Assembly: GCA_002762785.1 (NCBI GenBank)
Contig: PCXY01000005.1
Location: 392,849-456,848 of the forward strand
Length of the DNA stretch: 64,000 bases
Reading direction: 5' to 3'
DNA from: Candidatus Woesearchaeota archaeon CG10_big_fil_rev_8_21_14_0_10_45_16
GTDB lineage: Archaea > Nanobdellota > Nanobdellia > Woesearchaeales > GW2011-AR9
The notes beneath the pieces are model-generated. The model worked only from the letters and a program-made list of their open reading frames with translations. It did not search any database and had not been told where the DNA came from. The translations under genes were made by a program, and so were the position numbers. Positions within the stretch are counted from its first letter, which is position 1. Every line of letters begins with the position of its first letter. Shown here one piece after another: positions 2,488 to 61,458 of this stretch.

Positions 2488-3567
2488 ATGGCTTCTGTTA
2501 TGGAACTGTATGGTATTGTCAATCCAGGGATAGAACAGTTGGCTTCTGCTGAAGTGGAGGAGTTATGCAAAGCTAAAGTGGATGTATCGCCGTCCGTCAT
2601 CTCATTTAAGATCAAAGACCAAGAGTTCTGCCATTACCTTTCTCACGCTCAGGCACCCCGCAGGATCCTGGCGGCTCTTGGCCGTGCTGAGAACATCGAA
2701 ACGTTCTCGTTTACTGATGTTGATTGGAAAAACTTATTTCCAGAGGGCCGATCGTTCAAGATTGAAGTAGAGAACGTCAAAGGCCAGGACAATCGCTTTC
2801 GGATCGCCAAACAGGTCGGCGGCAAGCTGTTCCCACTGCTCGAAAAGAATCATATAAACGGCAAATTGGAATTGAAGAGACCTGACTTTTTAGTGGTCGT
2901 CTTCTACAACGGCGAAGAATATTTCGTCGGCATCCAACATACAGTGGAAGAACATAACTCTCGTGGTTACCGTATCTTCCCGCATTCGGGATCGTTCAAA
3001 GGCGATTTTGCCTATTTCTTTGTCAGGAAAGCTGGTTTCAATAAAGATGGCAAACTACTAGTGGGTTTCCTTAAGGACGGGGTCATGGCTATTGAAGCTG
3101 CCCTTTTTGCATCAGGGAAACAAGTTACGGACGTGTCTTCATTGTCATACTTGCCGTTCTATCAGGGGCCGAAGGATGGGGCAAGAAAAGACGAGGTAAA
3201 GGAAAGTTTCGTCATCGCCGCTTTCGACCACTCCATCCAGAATGTTACTGCTTCCAGGAAAAACGCCAAGCTAGCCGCTGTGCATGAGGAGATAGATGTC
3301 CAGAAACTGTCGCTGGAAGATCTCGACGTACGCTTCGGCGAAGATTCATTTGATTCTGCTATCTTTCACGTCACCTCTAAAGATGAGGACAGTATCAACG
3401 AGATTTATTACCAAGCTTCTTATGTTCTTAAGTCGGGGGGCCGGCTGCTACTGATAGCTCGTGAACAGGCTGGCTTTTCTATCTCTGACAAGTTCGAGCT
3501 GAAAGAAGAAGGTCTTCTGCAGAAGGGGGACAGTATCCATAAGTACTGGCTGCTCGAAAAACGCTAG
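2488..3567 (+). CDS. THUMP-domain RNA methyltransferase-like protein (Trm14/TrmN-like); SAM-binding motif I appears degenerate
   Basis: N-terminal ferredoxin-like plus THUMP-like region. Central GVMAIEAALFA resembles the post-motif-I helix of Trm14, but the DPMCGSGT loop is replaced by LVGFLKDG. Confidence 0.4.
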   Translation: MASVMELYGIVNPGIEQLASAEVEELCKAKVDVSPSVISFKIKDQEFCHYLSHAQAPRRILAALGRAENIETFSFTDVDWKNLFPEGRSFKIEVENVKGQDNRFRIAKQVGGKLFPLLEKNHINGKLELKRPDFLVVVFYNGEEYFVGIQHTVEEHNSRGYRIFPHSGSFKGDFAYFFVRKAGFNKDGKLLVGFLKDGVMAIEAALFASGKQVTDVSSLSYLPFYQGPKDGARKDEVKESFVIAAFDHSIQNVTASRKNAKLAAVHEEIDVQKLSLEDLDVRFGEDSFDSAIFHVTSKDEDSINEIYYQASYVLKSGGRLLLIAREQAGFSISDKFELKEEGLLQKGDSIHKYWLLEKR

Positions 3568-10155: not shown

Positions 10156-11277
10156 TCAAAAACCATTATCTTTGACAAATTTCAGGACAATCTTCTCAGC
10201 CTCTTTCCGTTTCCGTTGGTGTTCTTCCAGAAAGGCGCTCACTTTCTCGATGCAATACTTTTTCAACTCCCCCGAGAGCAGCTGGCCAGACCTGTAGTCA
10301 TCACTGAGCTTCTGTAATTTTTTATCATCTGGTTCTAGTCCGTACCGCAGCATCTGGAAAGCCACATCCACGTCGGGGTTGCCGCCTTTCTTACGGTGTT
10401 CTTCAACCGTCGCCTGTCCTCCTGAGAAAGCATACTTGTTGATCTTGGCCGCCGCTTCTTTAGGCGTGTCGCTTAAAGCGATATAGGACAGTGGATCTGA
10501 CGACGACATCTTGCCGTTCTTTAATCCTGGGCAGAACATATGATAAGTAGAACTTAACTGGTTAAAGTTGAACAGCTTGATCCTTTGCGACATGTCTCGA
10601 GCTAATCTTATATGAGGGTCTTGGTCGACACCCACGGGAATGACTATCGGCAGGGCTTTTCCCTCAAACTCTTTCAACTGAGGGTGCAGCATGTCTGCCG
10701 CCTGTAATAAAGAAGAAGCCATCTTTCCGGGCGAAATTTCTCCGTAGACCGCTTTGAATTCATTGAATGTGGCATGTCTGGCCAGCAAACTGGCTAAGGA
10801 ATAATAGGCGTTTGATCTCATGCCATCTTTAGATCGTTTTGACTGGAAATAGAAGTCGCACTTTTTCAGGTCAAGGCCGAGGGCGACGTAGTTTGTCAGG
10901 TATTCTTCGATGGCGGTCTTCCGCAGTTCATCCATGTCTGGGTTTCTGGAATTATACGCTTCAATATCCGCTACTGTCACGTACACTTTCGCTCCCAGCT
11001 TCTGGTAGAAGATCATCTGTTCGGCCACCATCTTATGACCAAAGTGAAACTTGCCGGAAGGCATCAGGCCAGTCATCATCACGAACGGCTTCTTTTTTTC
11101 TACTGCTTCCAAGATCTTTTCGAAGTCACGGTGGGCATAGATTATCTTTCTTCTGAATAAAACAGACTCTTGAAACTGCTTAGGAAGATCAGCCATCGCT
11201 TTCAGGCCGAACTCCTTGATCAGTTTGCCGTAATCGATAGTTCCCTGCACTTCCCATGGCGTGACTTTCTGTTTCAT
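10156..11277 (-). CDS. trpS: Tryptophan--tRNA ligase (archaeal/eukaryotic type)
   Basis: Class I HIGH-like PSGKFHFGH, plus VDQDPHIR and KMSSSDP, which match eukaryotic/archaeal TrpRS IDQDPYFR and KMSASDP. Confidence 0.85.
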   Translation of the reverse strand: MKQKVTPWEVQGTIDYGKLIKEFGLKAMADLPKQFQESVLFRRKIIYAHRDFEKILEAVEKKKPFVMMTGLMPSGKFHFGHKMVAEQMIFYQKLGAKVYVTVADIEAYNSRNPDMDELRKTAIEEYLTNYVALGLDLKKCDFYFQSKRSKDGMRSNAYYSLASLLARHATFNEFKAVYGEISPGKMASSLLQAADMLHPQLKEFEGKALPIVIPVGVDQDPHIRLARDMSQRIKLFNFNQLSSTYHMFCPGLKNGKMSSSDPLSYIALSDTPKEAAAKINKYAFSGGQATVEEHRKKGGNPDVDVAFQMLRYGLEPDDKKLQKLSDDYRSGQLLSGELKKYCIEKVSAFLEEHQRKRKEAEKIVLKFVKDNGF

Positions 11278-15630: not shown

Positions 15631-15734
15631 ACTGTTTCCGAATAGACCACCCTATATTAAGATTATTATGCTGGGGGCTAATATGAAATCCTCGAGGACA
15701 TCATGAACACCGATATTGGAAAATAAGAAAAAAA

Positions 15735-15870
15735 AGCGCCCAGGGGGAGTTTCGTGCGCAGAGCACAGCTCGAACCCCCGTATGCACGCTATCAGCTTTT
15801 TCATCGCTCATGAGAGCTCTTCATAGCGGACGACTGCAGGCGTGTGCCTTAGCCGCTTGGCGATGGGCGC
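15735..15870 (-). tRNA. tRNA-Cys(GCA) with two introns (about 43 nt at 37/38; about 20 nt inside T-loop)
   Basis: On the minus strand the 5' acceptor GCGCCCA pairs with 3' TGGGCGC. The anticodon arm is CACGC-CUGCAG/intron/A-GCGUG with G37, and the discriminator is U73. T-arm is GGGGG-UUCGA[insert]CU-CCCCC. An oligo-T terminator follows immediately and a TATA box (ACTATATAAAG) lies about 27 nt upstream. Confidence 0.65.
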
Positions 15871-15893: not shown

Positions 15894-15904
15894 CTTTATA
15901 TAGT
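15894..15904 (-). promoter_or_regulatory. TATA box for tRNA-Cys
   Basis: AACTATATAAAG on the minus strand about 25-30 nt upstream of the tRNA 5' end. Confidence 0.4.
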
Positions 15905-15922: not shown

Positions 15923-16549
15923 CTACTCGATCCTGAAAGAATCAAACCAATCTTTTTTGGAGAGCTTTCGAGGGATCTGGTTGAGCTCTTCTTTGGTGCC
16001 TTCAACAAAATAACTAAAAGTGAGAACTTCATCTCTCCTGTTAAATTCAAGACTGTTAAGCTTAGGTTTCCTTGTCCCTAAAGCGGAATCCAATTCTTCC
16101 TTTTCGATGATACGGTTGGTCTTGATAGTTATCTTCTTCTGATAAGAGCCAAGGCCTCTTTTCTCCAGGTAGATATCAAGGATCATCACCACCCACAATG
16201 AGCCGTAAAGGATGAACCCTTCCAGAAACTCGCCCACACCGATCAAAAGTCCGAAAATAGCAAACAGCCAGATGGTTGCGGCGGAGGTAAAACCTGAAAT
16301 CTTGTCAGTGGTCTTTATCAGGGCTCCAGCTCCCAGGAAACCGATGCCGGTGACGATAGAGCCTAATAGGGGCAATGGTTCGCCGGGGTTTAGGTTAAGC
16401 GCGGTTATGGCTAAGGCACAGGCTCCTAGAGAGACAAAAGTGAAAGTGCCGAAGCCGATAGGCTTATGCTGCCATTGCCGGGTCAGGCCGAAAACCAAAG
16501 CTAGGGTGAAAACAAGCAGGGACTTTTCCAGGATGATAATGTCGATCAT
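15923..16549 (-). CDS. MgtC/SapB family membrane protein
   Basis: N-terminal MgtC-like TM block (GIGFLGAGALIK, AATIWLFAIFGLLIGVGE) plus a soluble C-terminal domain. Confidence 0.55.
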   Translation of the reverse strand: MIDIIILEKSLLVFTLALVFGLTRQWQHKPIGFGTFTFVSLGACALAITALNLNPGEPLPLLGSIVTGIGFLGAGALIKTTDKISGFTSAATIWLFAIFGLLIGVGEFLEGFILYGSLWVVMILDIYLEKRGLGSYQKKITIKTNRIIEKEELDSALGTRKPKLNSLEFNRRDEVLTFSYFVEGTKEELNQIPRKLSKKDWFDSFRIE

Positions 16550-16608
16550 GATGCTTTTCCGACGCTAGAACTTCTATTTAAGCTTATGGTTTTAGCTATA
16601 GGTTTTAG

Positions 16609-17037
16609 CTATAACTTATGTCCGTACCTTTCCAGAAAACCAGGGAACTGTGAATGCAGCGGATCTGGTAAAGAATCTAAGCGGAACCAGCCGATCTCAT
16701 CAAACTTGTGGAGTTCGCCGATCTTAACTTTATTTTTATCTACCAGAACCTTGAAGAACATGGCCAGCCAATGAGTCTTAGTATTGTTATTTTCTCTGAA
16801 GATGTCTCCATAACCTAAAAATTCATATTCAAAGACATCCGTACAATATTCTTCTTTAATCTCTTTCCGCAAAGTTTCTTCGATAGTATAACCAAATTCC
16901 AGCCCGCCGCCGCCGACATCCCATCGCCCATGTTCATCCCGGCAGTTCTTCGACCTTTTGGCGAACAGAAAATTACCTTGACCATCGTGGCACAAGAAGA
17001 CGATACTTACCCCTGGGAAATCGATGCCTTTTTTCAT
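16609..17037 (-). CDS. NUDIX hydrolase
   Basis: Nudix box GGGLEFGYTIEETLRKEIKEEY. Confidence 0.75.
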   Translation of the reverse strand: MKKGIDFPGVSIVFLCHDGQGNFLFAKRSKNCRDEHGRWDVGGGGLEFGYTIEETLRKEIKEEYCTDVFEYEFLGYGDIFRENNNTKTHWLAMFFKVLVDKNKVKIGELHKFDEIGWFRLDSLPDPLHSQFPGFLERYGHKL

Positions 17038-17423
17038 TCTCTTATTTCCTCTACTAAATCTGAGATGTCATGAACTTGGCCTATCCAGGGGGTTACAGGA
17101 GAGACTTCTTTTTCAGGAAGTCTTCTTGTTCTTCTGAGTATATTTGCATATATTCTTCCAGGACGGGCTACGTTTTCCCAATGATCCATTATTTCTTGAT
17201 AGACATCTGGAGTGACGACATGGACATGTTCTACTAAGCCGAATGTTCTTCTTTCAAAACCCCAGCCGTTGCGGACATAAGTCCACTGACCTATGATTAT
17301 TGTGTCTCCTATCTCGATAGCATTGATCCTTGGGTCGTAACGAAGTTTCATCTGTTTTGGGACGCCCTCAACCCTGATATCAGAAACACGCAACTCTGCA
17401 GCTGTATATTTTAAATCTGCCAT
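17034..17423 (-). CDS. Hypothetical protein, possibly PUA/ASCH-like; start corrected to Met immediately after the tRNA-Arg terminator
   Basis: The track ORF's first 11 codons (MKVPSGPFFYK) translate the tRNA-Arg acceptor stem and oligo-T terminator. The ATG at 17423 follows the T-tract directly. Confidence 0.45.
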   Translation of the reverse strand: MADLKYTAAELRVSDIRVEGVPKQMKLRYDPRINAIEIGDTIIIGQWTYVRNGWGFERRTFGLVEHVHVVTPDVYQEIMDHWENVARPGRIYANILRRTRRLPEKEVSPVTPWIGQVHDISDLVEEIRE

Positions 17424-17435
17424 CTTGTAAAAAAA

Positions 17436-17601
17436 CGGGCCCGAGGGGACTTTCAAGGATACACGCTATCTTATGAGTTGGCGGCGAAGCCGCTCCGTCT
17501 CTCAGATGACGTGACATCTGTTTGAACCCCCGATCTACAGCTCTCGTCAAAGACTGGCTTTGTAGAAGGCTGTCGCCTTATCCAGGCTAGGCTACGGGCC
17601 C
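17436..17601 (-). tRNA. tRNA-Arg(UCU) with two introns (20 nt at 37/38; about 70 nt inside T-loop)
   Basis: Minus strand: acceptor GGGCCCG/CGGGCCC, perfect 4-bp D-stem GCCU/AGGC with AGCCUGGAUA loop, and anticodon arm ACAGC-CUUCUA/intron/A-GCUGU. T-arm is GGGGG-UUCAA[70-nt insert containing palindrome CAGAUGACGUGACAUCUG]GU-CCCCU. Discriminator G is followed by T7, and a TATA-like AAATATTTAAAAG lies about 25-37 nt upstream. Confidence 0.65.
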
Positions 17602-17625
17602 GTATCTCCTCCGAACGACAGATGA

Positions 17626-17638
17626 CTTTTAAATATTT
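17626..17638 (-). promoter_or_regulatory. TATA box for tRNA-Arg
   Basis: AAATATTTAAAAG on the minus strand upstream of the tRNA 5' end. Confidence 0.4.
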
Positions 17639-17667
17639 CGTTATATAAAATGTATAAAAAAAAGTTT

Positions 17668-18261
17668 TTACCTGATCGTAACCTTCTCGATCACCACATC
17701 TTCCACAGGCTTGTCCTGTCTATCTGTCTCTACCCTGGCAATCTTTTCGATGACATCTAGGCCTTCTACAACTTCTCCGAAGACCGGATGCTTGCTCTGC
17801 AAAGGCTGCTTGTTGAAGTCAAGGAACGAGTTGTCTCCCAGGTTGATGAAGAATTGGCTACCTCCGGAATTAGCTTGACCGGTATTGGCCATGGCGATAG
17901 TCCCTTTCTTGTTGGATAATCCTTCCACAAACTCGTCCTGGATGGTATAGCCAGGTCCGCCGGTACCCCACATGGCTTTCTTACTGTCGTCTTTAGTAAG
18001 AGGATCGCCACCTTGGATCATGAAGCCTGATGGCGGAGCTTTTGCAGGCCCGATGACGCGATGAAATTTGCTGCCGTCGTAGAAGCCTTTCTCAGCTAGG
18101 TCGATGAAATTTTTTGTAGTTATAGGCATCTTATCTTCAAAGAGCGTAATCTTGATGACGCCCATATTTGTCTCTATTGTTGCTGTCCTGTTCATTGTTC
18201 CTCCTCCGCATGATGTGATGAAAATGCTTAGTATTAACAGTATCGCTAGGTATCTTTTCAT
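17668..18261 (-). CDS. Secreted/lipoprotein peptidyl-prolyl cis-trans isomerase (cyclophilin type)
   Basis: Cyclophilin signatures (HRVIGPA..FMIQGGD; GTIAMANTG). The N-terminus has a lipobox-like ITSCGGG. Confidence 0.85.
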   Translation of the reverse strand: MKRYLAILLILSIFITSCGGGTMNRTATIETNMGVIKITLFEDKMPITTKNFIDLAEKGFYDGSKFHRVIGPAKAPPSGFMIQGGDPLTKDDSKKAMWGTGGPGYTIQDEFVEGLSNKKGTIAMANTGQANSGGSQFFINLGDNSFLDFNKQPLQSKHPVFGEVVEGLDVIEKIARVETDRQDKPVEDVVIEKVTIR

Positions 18262-23974: not shown

Positions 23975-24105
23975 GGTCTCTTATTTTATGTATGAGCTTT
24001 TAATACTTCTGCCTAGATTAGAAACTACTGCCCAGTAACAAAACCACCGAAAGGTTTAAATATAAGCACTACAATTGAGTAGTAAACACCTCAAAACCAC
24101 CTCTT

Positions 24106-24140
24106 TTCCTCAGTAAGCCTCCGGGTTTACTGGGGTTTTT
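24106..24140 (+). other. 9-bp hairpin followed by T5 tract in long intergenic region
   Basis: CAGTAAGCC-tcc-GGGTTTACTG followed by GGGTTTTT. Confidence 0.25.
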
Positions 24141-24637
24141 ATAATCCTAAAATTTCACTTTTTTTTGTAAATTAAAAGTAAGATTGAGCTTTTTCTTGTG
24201 GTTTTGAGATTTCATAAAAACTGCCTCATTTTGGGTATCTGCCTAAAGCGCGGCACTTTATATTCTGAATAAAAGACCGAATAATTTATAAATGGAGCTC
24301 TCCCCCAGAAAAAAAGCCCGTCACGAGAGTACCTGTGGGAGCCCACGGCAAGTCCAAGCCATGAACATGGGGGTTAGTGGTACGGGCATCATACCTATTA
24401 CGATTTAGCAACAAAGTGGGGAAGTTTCCCACTCAAAAAAAACAGAAGGAAGAGCAGTTTAACTCTATCACATCATGATCATACCTCACGAATTCACCCG
24501 TACGAAACATCGTGAATAAGTCATTGACATCATGTCATAGTTTTTAGCATCTGCTCTTTCTACAGGAGGATAAAAATGGTATCAAAAAAACAAAGCTTTT
24601 TTTGGAACCTCCAGAAATCGCCAAGAGGTGATTTCTG

Positions 24638-40212: not shown

Positions 40213-41283
40213 ATGATCACTGAACATTCAGCAGCCATCACAGGAGAGCCGTATCAAGGCGATGTCAATGCCAAGATGGATGTATTTTACAATCCTTTGA
40301 TGGTCTCTAACAGAAACGTCTCTGTGGTCTTACTAAACTCTATCCCTAACAAGAACATGAAGCTGGCCTTGCCTCTAGCTGGTTCCGGGATCAGAGCTTT
40401 CCGGTTCCTGAAAGAATTGAAGAAAGGCAAGATCAAAGAGCTATACGTCAACGATAAGAAGCATAATTTCAATGAGATATTTTCAAAAAATCTGGAATTG
40501 AATAAGATAGACAAGACCAAAGCAAACATCAGTAATGAAGACGCTACCTTGTTCATGCTTCATCAAGAAGGTTTTGATTATATCGACATCGATCCGTTCG
40601 GTTCGCCGAACCCGTTCCTGGCGGCAGCTATCGCCAGGATTTCCAGAAAAGGGATATTGGCCATAACGGCTACGGACACGGCAGCCTTGACGGGAACGTA
40701 TCCTAAAGTTACTAAAAGGAAATACTGGGGGACATCGGTGAAAAATCATCTGATGCATGAGACTGGTTTGCGGATACTGATACGGAAAATCCAGTTGCAA
40801 GGGATCCAGTTCGAGAAAGCTTTGACGCCAGTATTGGCATATCACAAAGATCATTATTTCCGCGTCTATTTCCGCTCTGAGAAGGGCAAGGAGAGATGCG
40901 ACCAGATCATTAAACAGCACAAGTATCTTCTTTTTGACGGGAAAACTCTTGATTTCAAGATCTCTGACTATAACAAAGAAGATGGATATCTTTACATCGG
41001 GCCGTTATGGGCTGGTCTTTTAGCTGATATCTCATTGTTGAAAAAAATGTGCAAGAACAACCCTTTTCCGGAGGAACAGAAATTTTTAGAAATATTAAGG
41101 GATGAACTGCCGGTCGTCGGTTTCCATGACATCCACGCTTTGGCCAAGGCTTACAGGCTGGAGATACCAAAGCTGGAAGGGCTGTTAAAAAGTTTGAAAG
41201 GGACCCGGACGCATTTCCTGCCGACGGGGATAAAGACCACAAAAAAAGCGGCTGAGATAATAAAAATAATAAAAAAATCTTAA
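40213..41283 (+). CDS. trm1: tRNA (guanine26-N2)-dimethyltransferase Trm1
   Basis: FYNPLMVSNRN; ALPLAGSGIRAFRF; DIDPFGSP. Confidence 0.8.
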   Translation: MITEHSAAITGEPYQGDVNAKMDVFYNPLMVSNRNVSVVLLNSIPNKNMKLALPLAGSGIRAFRFLKELKKGKIKELYVNDKKHNFNEIFSKNLELNKIDKTKANISNEDATLFMLHQEGFDYIDIDPFGSPNPFLAAAIARISRKGILAITATDTAALTGTYPKVTKRKYWGTSVKNHLMHETGLRILIRKIQLQGIQFEKALTPVLAYHKDHYFRVYFRSEKGKERCDQIIKQHKYLLFDGKTLDFKISDYNKEDGYLYIGPLWAGLLADISLLKKMCKNNPFPEEQKFLEILRDELPVVGFHDIHALAKAYRLEIPKLEGLLKSLKGTRTHFLPTGIKTTKKAAEIIKIIKKS

Positions 41284-42659: not shown

Positions 42660-43502
42660 ATGGGTACTGTTCACATAAAAGATAGAGCTGAACTACAGCG
42701 GAAGATCGATCGTATCAAGAAAGATGGTATTTCTTCACTGCATGTCATCTCGGATTTTGACAAGACTCTTACCACTGCTTTTGTCGATGGGGAGAAAGTG
42801 CAGTCTACCTATGCTCTCATCCGCAACGGCAAGTATCTCTCGCCAGAGTACGTGCAAAGGTCGCATGCTCTTTTTGATAAGTACCATCCGTATGAGGCGG
42901 CTGACGATCTCATGGAAGAAGAGCGTAATGCCATGATGGTCCGTTGGTGGAAAGAGCATTATCAGATGATGGTGGACTGCGGACTCAGTCAAGCGGTCAT
43001 CAAGGACATCATCAGGAGCGGCAAGTTGCGTCTGCGGGCTGGAGCTTCTGCTCTGTTCCATTCTTTAGCTGATAAAAACATCCCTCTCCTTATCTTTTCA
43101 GCTGGCCAGGGTGATATCATCACTGAGTTTTTGAAACAGAATGGTTATGATACGCCCAATGTTCATGTAATCTCTAATTTCTTCACTTTCTCTGCTGACG
43201 GCTTGGCCGACGGATATAAAGAACCGTTTATCCACACTTTCAACAAGAACGAGGTGGTCGTTCGGGAAACCCCTTATTATCAGCAGGTCAAGGACAGACG
43301 TCATGTTATCTTGTTAGGCGACAGTCTCGGCGACCTGGGGATGTCAGAAGGCCTGGAGCATGACGTCATCATCAAGATCGGCTTCCTCAATGAGAACAAA
43401 GAAAAATTTCTGAAGAAGTATCTGAATATGTTCGATGTTGTTATCACCGATGACAGCGGGATGGAGTATGTCGATGATATACTCACACAAGTCTTACGGT
43501 AA
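42660..43502 (+). CDS. HAD-superfamily pyrimidine 5'-nucleotidase (UMPH-1-like)
   Basis: DFDKTLT motif I, cap domain, GDSLGD motif. Confidence 0.65.
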   Translation: MGTVHIKDRAELQRKIDRIKKDGISSLHVISDFDKTLTTAFVDGEKVQSTYALIRNGKYLSPEYVQRSHALFDKYHPYEAADDLMEEERNAMMVRWWKEHYQMMVDCGLSQAVIKDIIRSGKLRLRAGASALFHSLADKNIPLLIFSAGQGDIITEFLKQNGYDTPNVHVISNFFTFSADGLADGYKEPFIHTFNKNEVVVRETPYYQQVKDRRHVILLGDSLGDLGMSEGLEHDVIIKIGFLNENKEKFLKKYLNMFDVVITDDSGMEYVDDILTQVLR

Positions 43503-44559
43503 CAACACCTTTCTCCACTTCAAACTTTACTGGCAGGAATCTTTCTACAACGTGGATGTTGGTGAGAGCATGATCGCTGACTTTACCCGTTTTCATGACC
43601 GATCCCGGCAGTAAAGCCAGATACGGTATCAGCTGGTCAGCCAGGAAATGGTCGACGACCGCACCGGAAGAGATCTCTTCTTTCAATTTATCAGCTGCTT
43701 CCTTGGCTATGTCTTCCGACCGTTTCCCTTTTTCGATAAGCACGTCGCTGCCTAGTATCAGCGGGTTCTCGTAATCAGCTTGTCCATCCCGGCTGAAGAT
43801 AGCCCACAGCAGGACTTCTCCTCCGGTACTGAGACTGTCGGCATATTCCACGTCGATGGTGATGGGCACATCATGATCTTTAAGGTATGGCTTTATGCTG
43901 TCGTTGATCCTGCGGCCAACTTCTTTCTCTTCCAGCTCTTTGGAGAGGTTGATGAACCCTTTGATATGTTCTAAAGTTCCTTGTTGTTTCAGATCATAAA
44001 GACGTAAATCATGTCTTTTTTCGATGAATTCGGCAAAGCTGTGATATCGGGGAACGATCTCTACTTCTACTAGACCATTGCCTTTTGGATAGTACCCTCT
44101 TTTCAGAACTTTCAGCTCTATCTTTTCCACGAACCTTCGCAGCTGCGGGAACAAGATGTTGGAGATGTAATCTACGGAAGCCTGCCATTTACCGCAAGTT
44201 CCTCCGGAAATCTTTAAAGTTATTTTACCTGGCGCGAATAAGCAAGGTGGAATTATCGCTTGTAGTACTAGGGAGATACTACCAGCAGTACCAATCTCAA
44301 TTTCATAGATTCCTCTCTTAACTTTTCCAGGAACAAAACGAAGTTTCTCAGAACCAATATTGACTTCGTTGGTTTTGCCGTTACAGATTTGTTCCAAAGC
44401 TTTGATAGCTGCTAAGTGCTGTGCTTTCAATCCCGGCTGGGGTCTGCCGGCGCGGATGTTGTCGACTTCAAAAGTAAGGCCGGTCAAGGCAGAGAAAGCT
44501 AAAGCGGTGCGTATCAAAGCGCCGCCGCCTTCTCCATGTGAACCGTCAAGGAAGATCAT
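43483..44559 (-). CDS. rtcA: RNA 3'-terminal phosphate cyclase
   Basis: DGSHGEGGGALIRTALAFSALTG and a catalytic His region. Confidence 0.85.
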   Translation of the reverse strand: MIFLDGSHGEGGGALIRTALAFSALTGLTFEVDNIRAGRPQPGLKAQHLAAIKALEQICNGKTNEVNIGSEKLRFVPGKVKRGIYEIEIGTAGSISLVLQAIIPPCLFAPGKITLKISGGTCGKWQASVDYISNILFPQLRRFVEKIELKVLKRGYYPKGNGLVEVEIVPRYHSFAEFIEKRHDLRLYDLKQQGTLEHIKGFINLSKELEEKEVGRRINDSIKPYLKDHDVPITIDVEYADSLSTGGEVLLWAIFSRDGQADYENPLILGSDVLIEKGKRSEDIAKEAADKLKEEISSGAVVDHFLADQLIPYLALLPGSVMKTGKVSDHALTNIHVVERFLPVKFEVEKGVVTVRLV

Positions 44560-44645: not shown

Positions 44646-44807
44646 GGGGATGTAGTATAACCTGGCAGAATAGGGGCCTCCAGTAATGGAAGTTTGAGCT
44701 TCGGCGATGATAATAACTTTCCCTGAAGTCAGCCTTAGATCTGGGTTCAAATAGTTGACGACGAGGCAACGACCGAAAGCGTCAGCTTGATTGTCCCAGC
44801 ATCCCCA
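44646..44807 (+). tRNA. tRNA-Trp(CCA) with two introns (about 47 nt at 37/38; about 42 nt inside T-loop)
   Basis: Acceptor GGGGAUG/CAUCCCC, anticodon loop CUCCAG/intron/A, T-arm CUGGG-UUCAA[insert]GU-CCCAG. Discriminator A is followed by a T6 tract. The first intron carries UGAUAA and CUGA box-like elements. Confidence 0.55.
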
Positions 44808-61372: not shown

Positions 61373-61458
61373 AGCCTCTGGAGGGAATTGAACCCTCGAC
61401 CTGCGCTTCTCTCTGGGATACATACGAGAGCGCCGCTATACCGCTAAGCCACAGAGGC
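61373..61458 (-). tRNA. tRNA-Thr(CGU) with 14-nt canonical intron
   Basis: Acceptor GCCUCUG/CAGAGGC, anticodon arm GCGCU-CUCGUA/intron/A-AGCGC, intact T-arm GAGGG-UUCAAUU-CCCUC, discriminator U. A T7 terminator follows and a TATA-like element lies about 25-35 nt upstream. Confidence 0.7.

Follow-up and report, generated by a model that had tools for sequence, protein, structure and literature searches.

A predicted tRNA-Cys(GCA) gene with an anticodon-loop intron and a T-loop intron in a woesearchaeotal genome

A tRNA-Cys(GCA) gene interrupted at two positions

We analysed a stretch of 64,000 nt (the window hereafter) from contig PCXY01000005.1 of Candidatus Woesearchaeota archaeon CG10_big_fil_rev_8_21_14_0_10_45_16, and found that its minus strand at 15870-15735 carries what we read as a genuine tRNA-Cys(GCA) gene with introns at 37/38 and in the T-loop. 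We put the probability of this reading at about 0.9. The predicted precursor is 136 nt long, and its order on the minus strand is GCGCCCA-UC-GCC(A)...(A)GGC-A-CACGC-CUGCAG-[43 nt]-A-GCGUG-CAUAC-GGGGG-UUCGAG-[20 nt]-U-CCCCC-UGGGCGC-U. The gene and its flanks comprise the following features:

15895..15902, minus strand: TATA box TATATAAA, at -32..-25 from tRNA position 1, with a purine-rich sequence (AGAAAAC) resembling a B recognition element (BRE) 5' of it
15834..15870, minus strand: 5' exon, tRNA positions 1-37, with the acceptor 5' strand, the D arm, the anticodon stem 5' strand and C32 U33 G34 C35 A36 G37
15791..15833, minus strand: intron 1, 43 nt, at 37/38, UCGUCCGCUAUGAAGAGCUCUCAUGAGCGAUGAAAAAGCUGAU, with a relaxed bulge-helix-bulge (BHB) motif (ARAGORN -i and BHB table)
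15769..15790, minus strand: middle exon, tRNA positions 38-59, with A38, the anticodon stem 3' strand, variable loop CAUAC, the T stem 5' strand and U54 U55 C56 G57 A58 G59
15749..15768, minus strand: intron 2, 20 nt, at 59/60, CUGUGCUCUGCGCACGAAAC, with a strict hBHBh' motif
15735..15748, minus strand: 3' exon, tRNA positions 60-73, with U60, the T stem 3' strand, the acceptor 3' strand and U73; no encoded CCA
15728..15734, minus strand: oligo-T tract of 7 T right after U73, an archaeal terminator signal

After removal of both inserts all stems were Watson-Crick paired, with a 7-bp acceptor stem (GCGCCCA/UGGGCGC), U8 and a D arm present, the anticodon stem CACGC/GCGUG bearing the loop CUGCAG|A, and the T stem GGGGG/CCCCC. 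The first-pass annotation had held that a cloverleaf appears only when a 43-nt and a 20-nt insert are taken out; both the reading of the sequence and ARAGORN -i on edited DNA agreed with this at the coordinates given above. The features expected of tRNA-Cys were all found, namely U33, the anticodon GCA, a purine at position 37 and discriminator U73 (at 15735). U73 is the major identity element for CysRS, and a final T was found at this position in every parsed tRNA-Cys homologue. That a TATA box and an oligo-T tract flank the gene, as had also been proposed, was confirmed by their family-typical positions across 98 homologous tRNA-Cys loci: the TATA box coincides with an A/T peak at -32..-25 common to these loci, and at least 4 T occur within 15 nt downstream in 62 of the 98. 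Moreover, an identical tRNA-Cys gene was identified in two independent metagenomes, JGI 3300004210 (contig Ga0066639_10000005, 156 kb) and ENA ERZ27293414.

The T-loop insert forms a strict BHB motif at 59/60

RNAfold was run on the whole precursor and on the isolated T arm, and a 3-4-3 BHB was the minimum free energy (MFE) fold in the T arm. In this fold the 5-bp T stem GGGGG/CCCCC is followed by a 3' bulge A-C-U60, a central helix in which U54-U55-C56-G57 pairs with C-G-A-A, a 5' bulge A58-G59-C, and an inner helix UGUGC:GCGCA of 5 bp closed by the loop UCU. When the 20-nt insert was shuffled 20000 times with its composition preserved, a 4/4 central helix together with an inner helix of at least 3 bp arose in just 19 cases; the BHB structure of the T arm is not due to chance.

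In each bulge of a BHB, the cut made by the splicing endonuclease falls behind nucleotide two, and the same rule puts canonical introns at 37/38. Applied to the 3-4-3 fold, the rule gives AG|C and AC|U, and thus places intron 2 at 59/60 with a mature T-loop UUCGAGU. Excision of CUGUGCUCUGCGCACGAAAC left exactly this 7-nt loop, which is also the loop of intronless homologues. The 20-nt size given by the first-pass annotation therefore stood, while its position, 58/59, had to be shifted one base in the 3' direction on the grounds of BHB geometry and the intronless homologues. It had also been supposed that the T-loop intron needs a BHB-tolerant endonuclease. This was not borne out: the T-loop intron is the strict one and the 37/38 intron the relaxed one, and a strict hBHBh' motif implies no specially tolerant endonuclease.

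The 37/38 intron carries a relaxed BHB motif

The 43-nt intron at 37/38 was supported, as predicted, by the cloverleaf, by BHB geometry and by homologues with and without the insert. In the 3' half of its motif, the 5-bp anticodon stem is followed by the bulge A-U-A38 and by a central helix composed of C32:G, U33.U, G34:C and C35:G, the intron strand of which is:

15793..15796, minus strand: b' (GCUG), which pairs with C32-C35 to make the 4-bp central BHB helix

A strict hBHBh' motif was not formed here, with three of four central pairs, no inner helix, and CGUC on the 5' side facing AAAAA. A relaxed BHB (HBh'/BHL) was found, in which the 5' splice site lies in a loop. In canonical introns, the 3' site lies three nucleotides downstream of the 'A-I' pair formed by nucleotide 32. 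Within the tRNA-Cys family C32:G is invariant (26/26) and C35:G is present in 23/26, and the same relaxed pattern recurred in 34 of 35 distinct homologous introns. Folding of both junctions, suggested in the first-pass annotation as a check, thus yielded a strict hBHBh' at 59/60 and a relaxed motif at 37/38. According to reviews, relaxed 37/38 motifs can be cleaved when the rest of the tRNA body is complete (PMC6379350).

Homologous tRNA-Cys genes differ in intron content

We scanned metagenomes for the D-arm/anticodon pattern and parsed 112 tRNA-Cys genes from the 119 loci that matched. Introns were absent from 65 of them, 29 carried the 37/38 intron only, 6 a T-loop insert only, and 12 both. 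The same 59/60 BHB was identified in 14 of 15 distinct T-arm inserts, with the central helix fully paired (4/4) in 11 and paired at 3/4 in three. In a block alignment of 13 sequences this helix was 94% paired and showed a compensatory change from G57:C to A57:U (8 versus 4). The inserts ranged from 11 to 51 nt and their inner sequences were mostly unrelated; homology was visible among those of the window, L080 and L127 (CUGUGC...CACGAAA). Predicted mature T-loops were UUCGAGU, UUCAAAU or UUCGAAU, each being the loop of intronless homologues. One intronless locus, L130, has the acceptor stem of the window gene and the same downstream NFACT gene. Taken together, these homologues show what appears to be a genuine, spliced gene with intron presence/absence polymorphism. 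Introns at 59/60 that are unrelated in sequence and length, at one site beside intronless orthologues, offer material for the debate on intron gain and loss.

Two loci departed from the common form. The T-arm insert of L131, 31 nt long, sits at about 53/54, on the 5' side of the loop, and not at 59/60, and L069 has an 11-nt 59/60 intron lacking an inner helix, resembling the bulge-helix-loop (BHL) form of ARMAN-2. A scan of genome contigs for the T-arm/acceptor pattern gave bacterial chance matches only, and no tRNA-Cys was found downstream of MgtC homologues at 57-65% identity.

The gene and its neighbours in the window are overlooked by standard tRNA finders

ARAGORN did not call the tRNA-Cys locus in default mode, nor with -i on the whole window, and no Rfam match was obtained at the gathering score, at E<=10 on the region or at E<=1 window-wide. 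When the 20-nt T-loop insert was deleted, ARAGORN -i called a tRNA-Cys(gca) with a 43-nt anticodon-loop intron, and when both inserts were deleted, ARAGORN called a 73-nt tRNA-Cys. The first-pass annotation had warned that genes of this type are easily missed, which proved correct for both ARAGORN and Rfam; ARAGORN -i, which it had named as a check, failed on the whole window and succeeded once the T-loop insert was gone.

We then scanned for T arms with inserts, edited them and applied ARAGORN to search for hidden tRNA genes. A 59/60 intron was found in three of the four tRNA genes of the window (Cys, Trp and Arg-UCU), each accompanied by a 37/38 intron, and it is because of this combination that all three genes were missed by ARAGORN and Rfam. 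Besides tRNA-Cys, the window carries:

44646-44807, plus strand: tRNA-Trp(CCA), interrupted by a 47-nt intron at 37/38 (44684-44730) and a 42-nt intron at 59/60 (44752-44793)
17601-17436, minus strand: tRNA-Arg(UCU), interrupted by a 20-nt intron with a near-strict BHB at 37/38 (17562-17543) and a 71-nt intron at 59/60 (17520-17450)
61373-61458, minus strand: tRNA-Thr(CGU) with a single canonical 14-16 nt anticodon-loop intron, the sole tRNA of the window seen by standard tools

The tRNA-Trp(CCA) gene was called by ARAGORN -i once its T-loop insert had been deleted, and it is flanked by a TATA-like box upstream and T6 downstream. In tRNA-Arg(UCU), the central helix of the 59/60 intron is UUCA:UGAA, and tRNA-Arg(UCU) genes with 59/60 inserts were also found at loci L019-L021, L049, L080 and L102. 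All intergenic gaps of the window were scanned and gave no further tRNA candidates and no second tRNA-Cys.

Undetected disrupted tRNA genes have been suspected in DPANN archaea from incomplete tRNA sets (Kaneta et al. 2018). Surveys of DPANN genomes that report "missing" tRNAs may merely overlook genes of the 37/38 plus 59/60 design, and the same oversight may lie behind conclusions on host dependence or unusual decoding that build on such gaps.

A conserved kink-turn-like module in the 37/38 intron

Inspection of the 37/38 intron revealed two further elements, a module resembling a kink-turn (K-turn) and a helix between intron and exon:

15823..15828, minus strand: 'P1' 5' strand CGCU-A-U, whose complement A(i n-1)-U(i n)|A38-G39-C40-G41 spans the 3' splice junction
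15801..15819, minus strand: K-turn-like module, with G-A at 15819-15818, hairpin GCUC-UCAU-GAGC at 15817-15806 and GAUGA at 15805-15801

In the K-turn register, the hairpin is the C (canonical) stem, GAU is the 3-nt bulge, and the two GA dinucleotides form the tandem sheared pairs; the polarity of the module is that of D'/C' in archaeal C/D sRNAs. We aligned 27 long tRNA-Cys 37/38 introns from the metagenome scan (loci L029-L144). Their 5' part consists of a variable 5' extension, followed by 4 nt plus R1 (complementary to the last intron nucleotide and A38-N41) and then U-N-N-N-G-A. In the 3' part, a G:C-closed hairpin of variable length and sequence is followed by R-A-U-G-A, a 3-4 nt spacer, the 4 nt that pair with 32-35, and a 3'-terminal A-N. 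The four G/A positions and the U of the module (GA 5' of the hairpin, A-U-G-A 3' of it) are invariant or more than 90% conserved in the 27 introns, and the hairpin covaries, with two-sided changes in all three counted pairs and a G:C closing pair in 21/26. The features of a K-turn (C stem, 3-nt bulge, tandem G.A/A.G) are thus present at the level of sequence signature only, and a manual check of the intron table gave no consistent Watson-Crick NC (non-canonical) stem in the tRNA-Cys introns.

The P1 helix is 86% paired across the family, a support equal to that of the BHB helix. The pair opposite position 39 is CG in 19 introns and GC in 7 and is never unpaired, and the pair between R1 and the last intron nucleotide is AU in 7, GC in 6, CG in 3 and UA in 1. 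P1 and the anticodon stem are mutually exclusive, and in the window their computed energies are about equal (-44.7 versus -43.6 kcal/mol), P1 being set against the BHB conformer. In L078, L080 and L117 the K-turn and P1 are lost together, the GA residues being degenerate and the intron-exon helix absent, and L044 has a perfect Watson-Crick hairpin (UCAUCAG...CUGAUGA) in place of the K-turn. The same module, GA-GCUUCGGC-GAUGA, occurs in the 37/38 intron of tRNA-Trp(CCA), with CUGA 12 nt further on and an NC stem of U.U, A:U, A:U and G.U. The module was absent from other tRNA introns that ARAGORN could call on 145 loci.

The first-pass annotation had noted words reminiscent of box C/D in this intron. 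AUGAAGA and GAUGA do align with the boxes of the family (consensus AUGAUGA ... GAUGA), but a canonical guide did not emerge. In the window, the intron has AUGAAGA (6/7 to RUGAUGA) and CUGA; the family consensus is AUGAUGA with a D-like box NNGA, and positions 3-4 (GA) of the 5' box are present in only about 60% of family members. The covarying 12-nt hairpin stands after the 5' box in the place of a guide and D', the gap from GAUGA to CUGA is 4-5 nt, and no curated C/D family of Rfam matched at E<=10 locally or at E<=1 window-wide. Judged from these sequence features, the 37/38 intron is not a canonical methylation guide.

Other structural interpretations were tried and rejected. CAUGAGC of the window hairpin was discarded as a D' box because the hairpin loop is unconserved and the stem covaries. 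A symmetric GAUGA/GAUGA pairing ('Model S') was dropped since solely the K-turn register pairs all four invariant G/A mutually, and a canonical C/D K-turn closed by a terminal helix was dropped since R1 covaries with the final nucleotide of the intron, so that the bulge would be 1 nt and not 3 nt long. A second mimic helix (exon 27-31 with intron GCGAU) showed no covariation with the 31:39 switch. An H/ACA-like reading (pocket plus ANA) failed on a 5' pocket of just 4 nt and an ANA that is paired or in the bulge. Simultaneous formation of P1 and the central BHB helix would require a pseudoknot with a 0-1-nt crossing loop and was judged sterically unlikely. We also observed that the 5' strand of the module (UGAGCYYY, 15812-15819) is complementary to T-arm positions 49-57 (15772-15779) with several G.U pairs. 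The window gene has 8 such base pairs and some relatives reach 9 bp, but the complementarity is weak, with a mean of 6.9 nt versus 6.0 nt in shuffles.

Alternative readings of the locus

Several observations weigh against a genuine gene with two introns. The homologues come from metagenomes without taxonomy and were chosen by a common D-arm/anticodon pattern, so that calling them 'relatives' is an inference. One of the four central pairs of the 37/38 intron is a U.U mismatch and the inner helix is missing, and the anticodon stem is not in the thermodynamic MFE of the whole precursor. Furthermore, a Pfam scan of 46 open reading frames (ORFs) of the window gave no splicing endonuclease (tRNA_int_endo), RtcB ligase, L7Ae, Nop5 or fibrillarin. 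The imperfect 37/38 BHB and the silence of standard finders would agree with a tRNA pseudogene in decay, or with a tRNA gene whose disrupting insertions stay in place for good. Against this stand four stems that are perfect after insert removal, excision structures in both inserts with compensatory changes across homologues, and an intact, family-typical promoter and terminator; the sequence is moreover identical in independent samples, the same design is seen in two other tRNA genes of the window, and no other tRNA-Cys was found there. We regard decay or permanent disruption as extremely improbable. Very improbable, too, is a T-loop intron at 58/59, excised as GCUGUGCUCUGCGCACGAAA to give the mature T-loop UUCGACU and a mature tRNA ...UUCGACUCCCCC. 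Deletion of GCUGUGCUCUGCGCACGAAA likewise leaves a 7-nt loop that ARAGORN accepts, but UUCGACU occurs in no intronless homologue, these carrying UUCGAGU. The cut rule applied to the 3-4-3 BHB of the fold gives 59/60, 14 homologous inserts resolve to 59/60 likewise, and the tRNA-Cys intron of ARMAN-2 sits at 59/60.

What the module in the 37/38 intron does is a separate matter. In Euryarchaeota, the intron of tRNA-Trp guides Um39, and the tRNA-Cys intron could by analogy be a working box C/D (half-mer) guide, in which L7Ae would bind the K-turn and Nop5-fibrillarin would 2'-O-methylate position 39 before splicing via the CGCU-A-U antisense paired with A-U|A38-G41. This would account for a K-turn signature that is invariant in 27 introns, a consensus 5' box (AUGAUGA) that fits RUGAUGA, and an antisense helix in which the intron covaries with the exon and also with itself over the splice junction, R1:i_n showing four Watson-Crick types. 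The distance from the antisense to the GA of the K-turn is constant (gapless block alignment), the fifth nucleotide upstream of the D'-like NNGA lies opposite position 39 in a pair that is 100% Watson-Crick, and K-turn and antisense helix are jointly lost in the three loci named above. However, the duplex is 5-6 bp only, there is one K-turn in place of a juxtaposed C/D and C'/D' pair, with no Watson-Crick NC stem, and the spacer from GAUGA to the D-like NNGA in the window is 4-5 nt and not about 12. Rfam gave no C/D match even at E<=10, the Pfam scan gave no C/D proteins among the 46 window ORFs scanned, and the intron is absent from 65 of 112 homologues. In the tRNA-Trp gene of the window, the intron with this K-turn module shows no complementarity to its own exons, which argues for a structural, not a guide, role. 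A working guide of this kind is therefore unlikely.

Our own proposal for the module is broader and tentative. The intron may carry a conserved, L7Ae-type K-turn at a fixed distance from a covarying helix that draws positions 38-41, together with the 3' splice junction, away from the anticodon stem, so that the precursor could toggle between a K-turn/antisense state and a splicing-competent BHB state. It would then serve either as a minimal cis-acting half box C/D guide for a 2'-O-methylated nucleotide 39 (Nm39) or as a switch under protein control by which splicing is timed against the loss of the T-loop intron. We think this possible, at rather long odds. Neither an Nm39 half-guide nor a timing switch has been described for tRNA-Cys, and no published report of such a K-turn/intron-exon helix module in tRNA-Cys was found. 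The conserved K-turn and intron-exon helix offer a testable candidate for an intron function beyond removal.

A proposed splicing pathway

Based on these features, we propose the following order of events. The tRNA-Cys gene would be transcribed from the TATA/BRE promoter and transcription would end at the oligo-T tract. In the transcript, U54-G57 would pair with CGAA at the 3' end of intron 2 to form the 4-bp BHB helix, and the 37/38 intron would be held in a relaxed BHB composed of the anticodon stem, the 3-nt bulge and the helix between 32-35 and the intron, with the 5' site in a loop. Before splicing, the module of intron 1 (the K-turn-like hairpin and the helix sequestering 38-41) would most likely bind L7Ae and act at this stage. 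By established knowledge, the archaeal splicing endonuclease would cut each bulge after the second nucleotide, an RtcB-type ligase would join the exons, and CCA would be added later. The strict, structure-autonomous 59/60 intron would leave first, because as long as intron 2 is in place there can be no T-loop and hence no D/T elbow. Excision of the relaxed 37/38 intron would presumably come afterwards, once the body of the mature tRNA exists.

Genomic context

The tRNA-Cys gene lies adjacent to an MgtC gene, with an NFACT gene downstream. The MgtC protein shows 100% identity to one from a Candidatus Woesearchaeota CG10 archaeon. In the window (15923-18261), cyclophilin is followed by tRNA-Arg(UCU), with its introns at 37/38 and 59/60, and then by MgtC; this order is kept in L019-L021 at ~64% MgtC identity, whereas the tRNA-Cys downstream of MgtC is not. 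An ORF at 17034-17456 with a TTG start overlaps the 3' end of tRNA-Arg(UCU), and its true start is probably the ATG near 17423. Directly upstream of tRNA-Trp lies RtcA (RNA 3'-terminal phosphate cyclase; 43483-44559, minus strand). Other RNA-processing genes are Trm1 (m2,2G26 methyltransferase; 40213-41283, plus strand) and a UPF0020/RMKL-like methyltransferase (2488-3567, plus strand), and a class I Trp/Tyr-tRNA synthetase is encoded at 10156-11277 on the minus strand. The window is 43-49% G+C and contains the archaeal genes topoisomerase VI (recognised in the ORF translations), aIF-1A, aIF5B, RIO1 and Trm1. In its largest intergenic gap (23975-24637, 663 nt), neither an ORF of 90 aa or more, nor an Rfam match at E<=1, nor a tRNA-like acceptor/terminator pair was found.

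Comparison with known systems

The pre-tRNA-Trp intron of Euryarchaeota is a box C/D guide for Cm34 and Um39 (Clouet d'Orval 2001, cited in PMC7994747), and tRNA-Met of Nanoarchaeum equitans has a C/D-like intron of 66 nt (PMC3491384). Like these, the tRNA-Cys intron lies in the anticodon loop and has K-turn-like elements of the RUGAUGA/GAUGA/CUGA type; the euryarchaeal intron, too, pairs with the 3' exon around position 39, in competition with the splicing-competent fold. In contrast to both, the tRNA-Cys intron is just 43 nt long, with one K-turn, a covarying hairpin in the place of guide and D', no 12-nt spacers and an antisense helix of 5-6 bp.

The layout of the locus, an anticodon-loop intron combined with a T-loop intron, is of a class already known in related archaea, to which the window gene adds a new member only. 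Pre-tRNA-Cys(GCA) of ARMAN-2 (Candidatus Micrarchaeum acidiphilum, DPANN) has a 13-nt intron at 59/60 that is cleaved in vitro by the epsilon2 endonuclease (Fujishima et al. 2011, PMC3239211; PMC5829648; PMC12397907), and since this 59/60 tRNA-Cys intron has been published, the window gene belongs to a known class. The two genes agree in tRNA species, intron position 59/60, superphylum (DPANN) and in being missed by default finders. They differ in that the ARMAN-2 intron is a relaxed hBH/BHL and the sole intron of its gene, whereas the window gene has a strict hBHBh' intron of 20 nt and, at 37/38, a second one of 43 nt. The endonuclease of ARMAN-2 is of the epsilon2 type. Kaneta et al. 2018 surveyed a Woesearchaeota metagenome-assembled genome and described alpha4 endonucleases with an extra L3 loop in DPANN, and from PMC5829648 an alpha4 enzyme with this loop would be expected in the window lineage. 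Pre-tRNA-Pro(GGG) of ARMAN-2 has T-loop introns at 53/54 and 59/60 (PMC3239211; PMC5829648; PMC12397907). This tRNA-Pro and the multi-intron tRNAs of Thermoproteales (Sugahara 2008 and Fujishima 2010, cited in PMC3239211 and PMC6379350) resemble the window gene in having 2-3 BHB introns, T-loop sites included, that are excised by the splicing endonuclease. Those genes belong to other lineages and show other combinations of positions, whereas the window pairs 37/38 with 59/60 in tRNA-Cys, tRNA-Trp and tRNA-Arg(UCU) within 64 kb.

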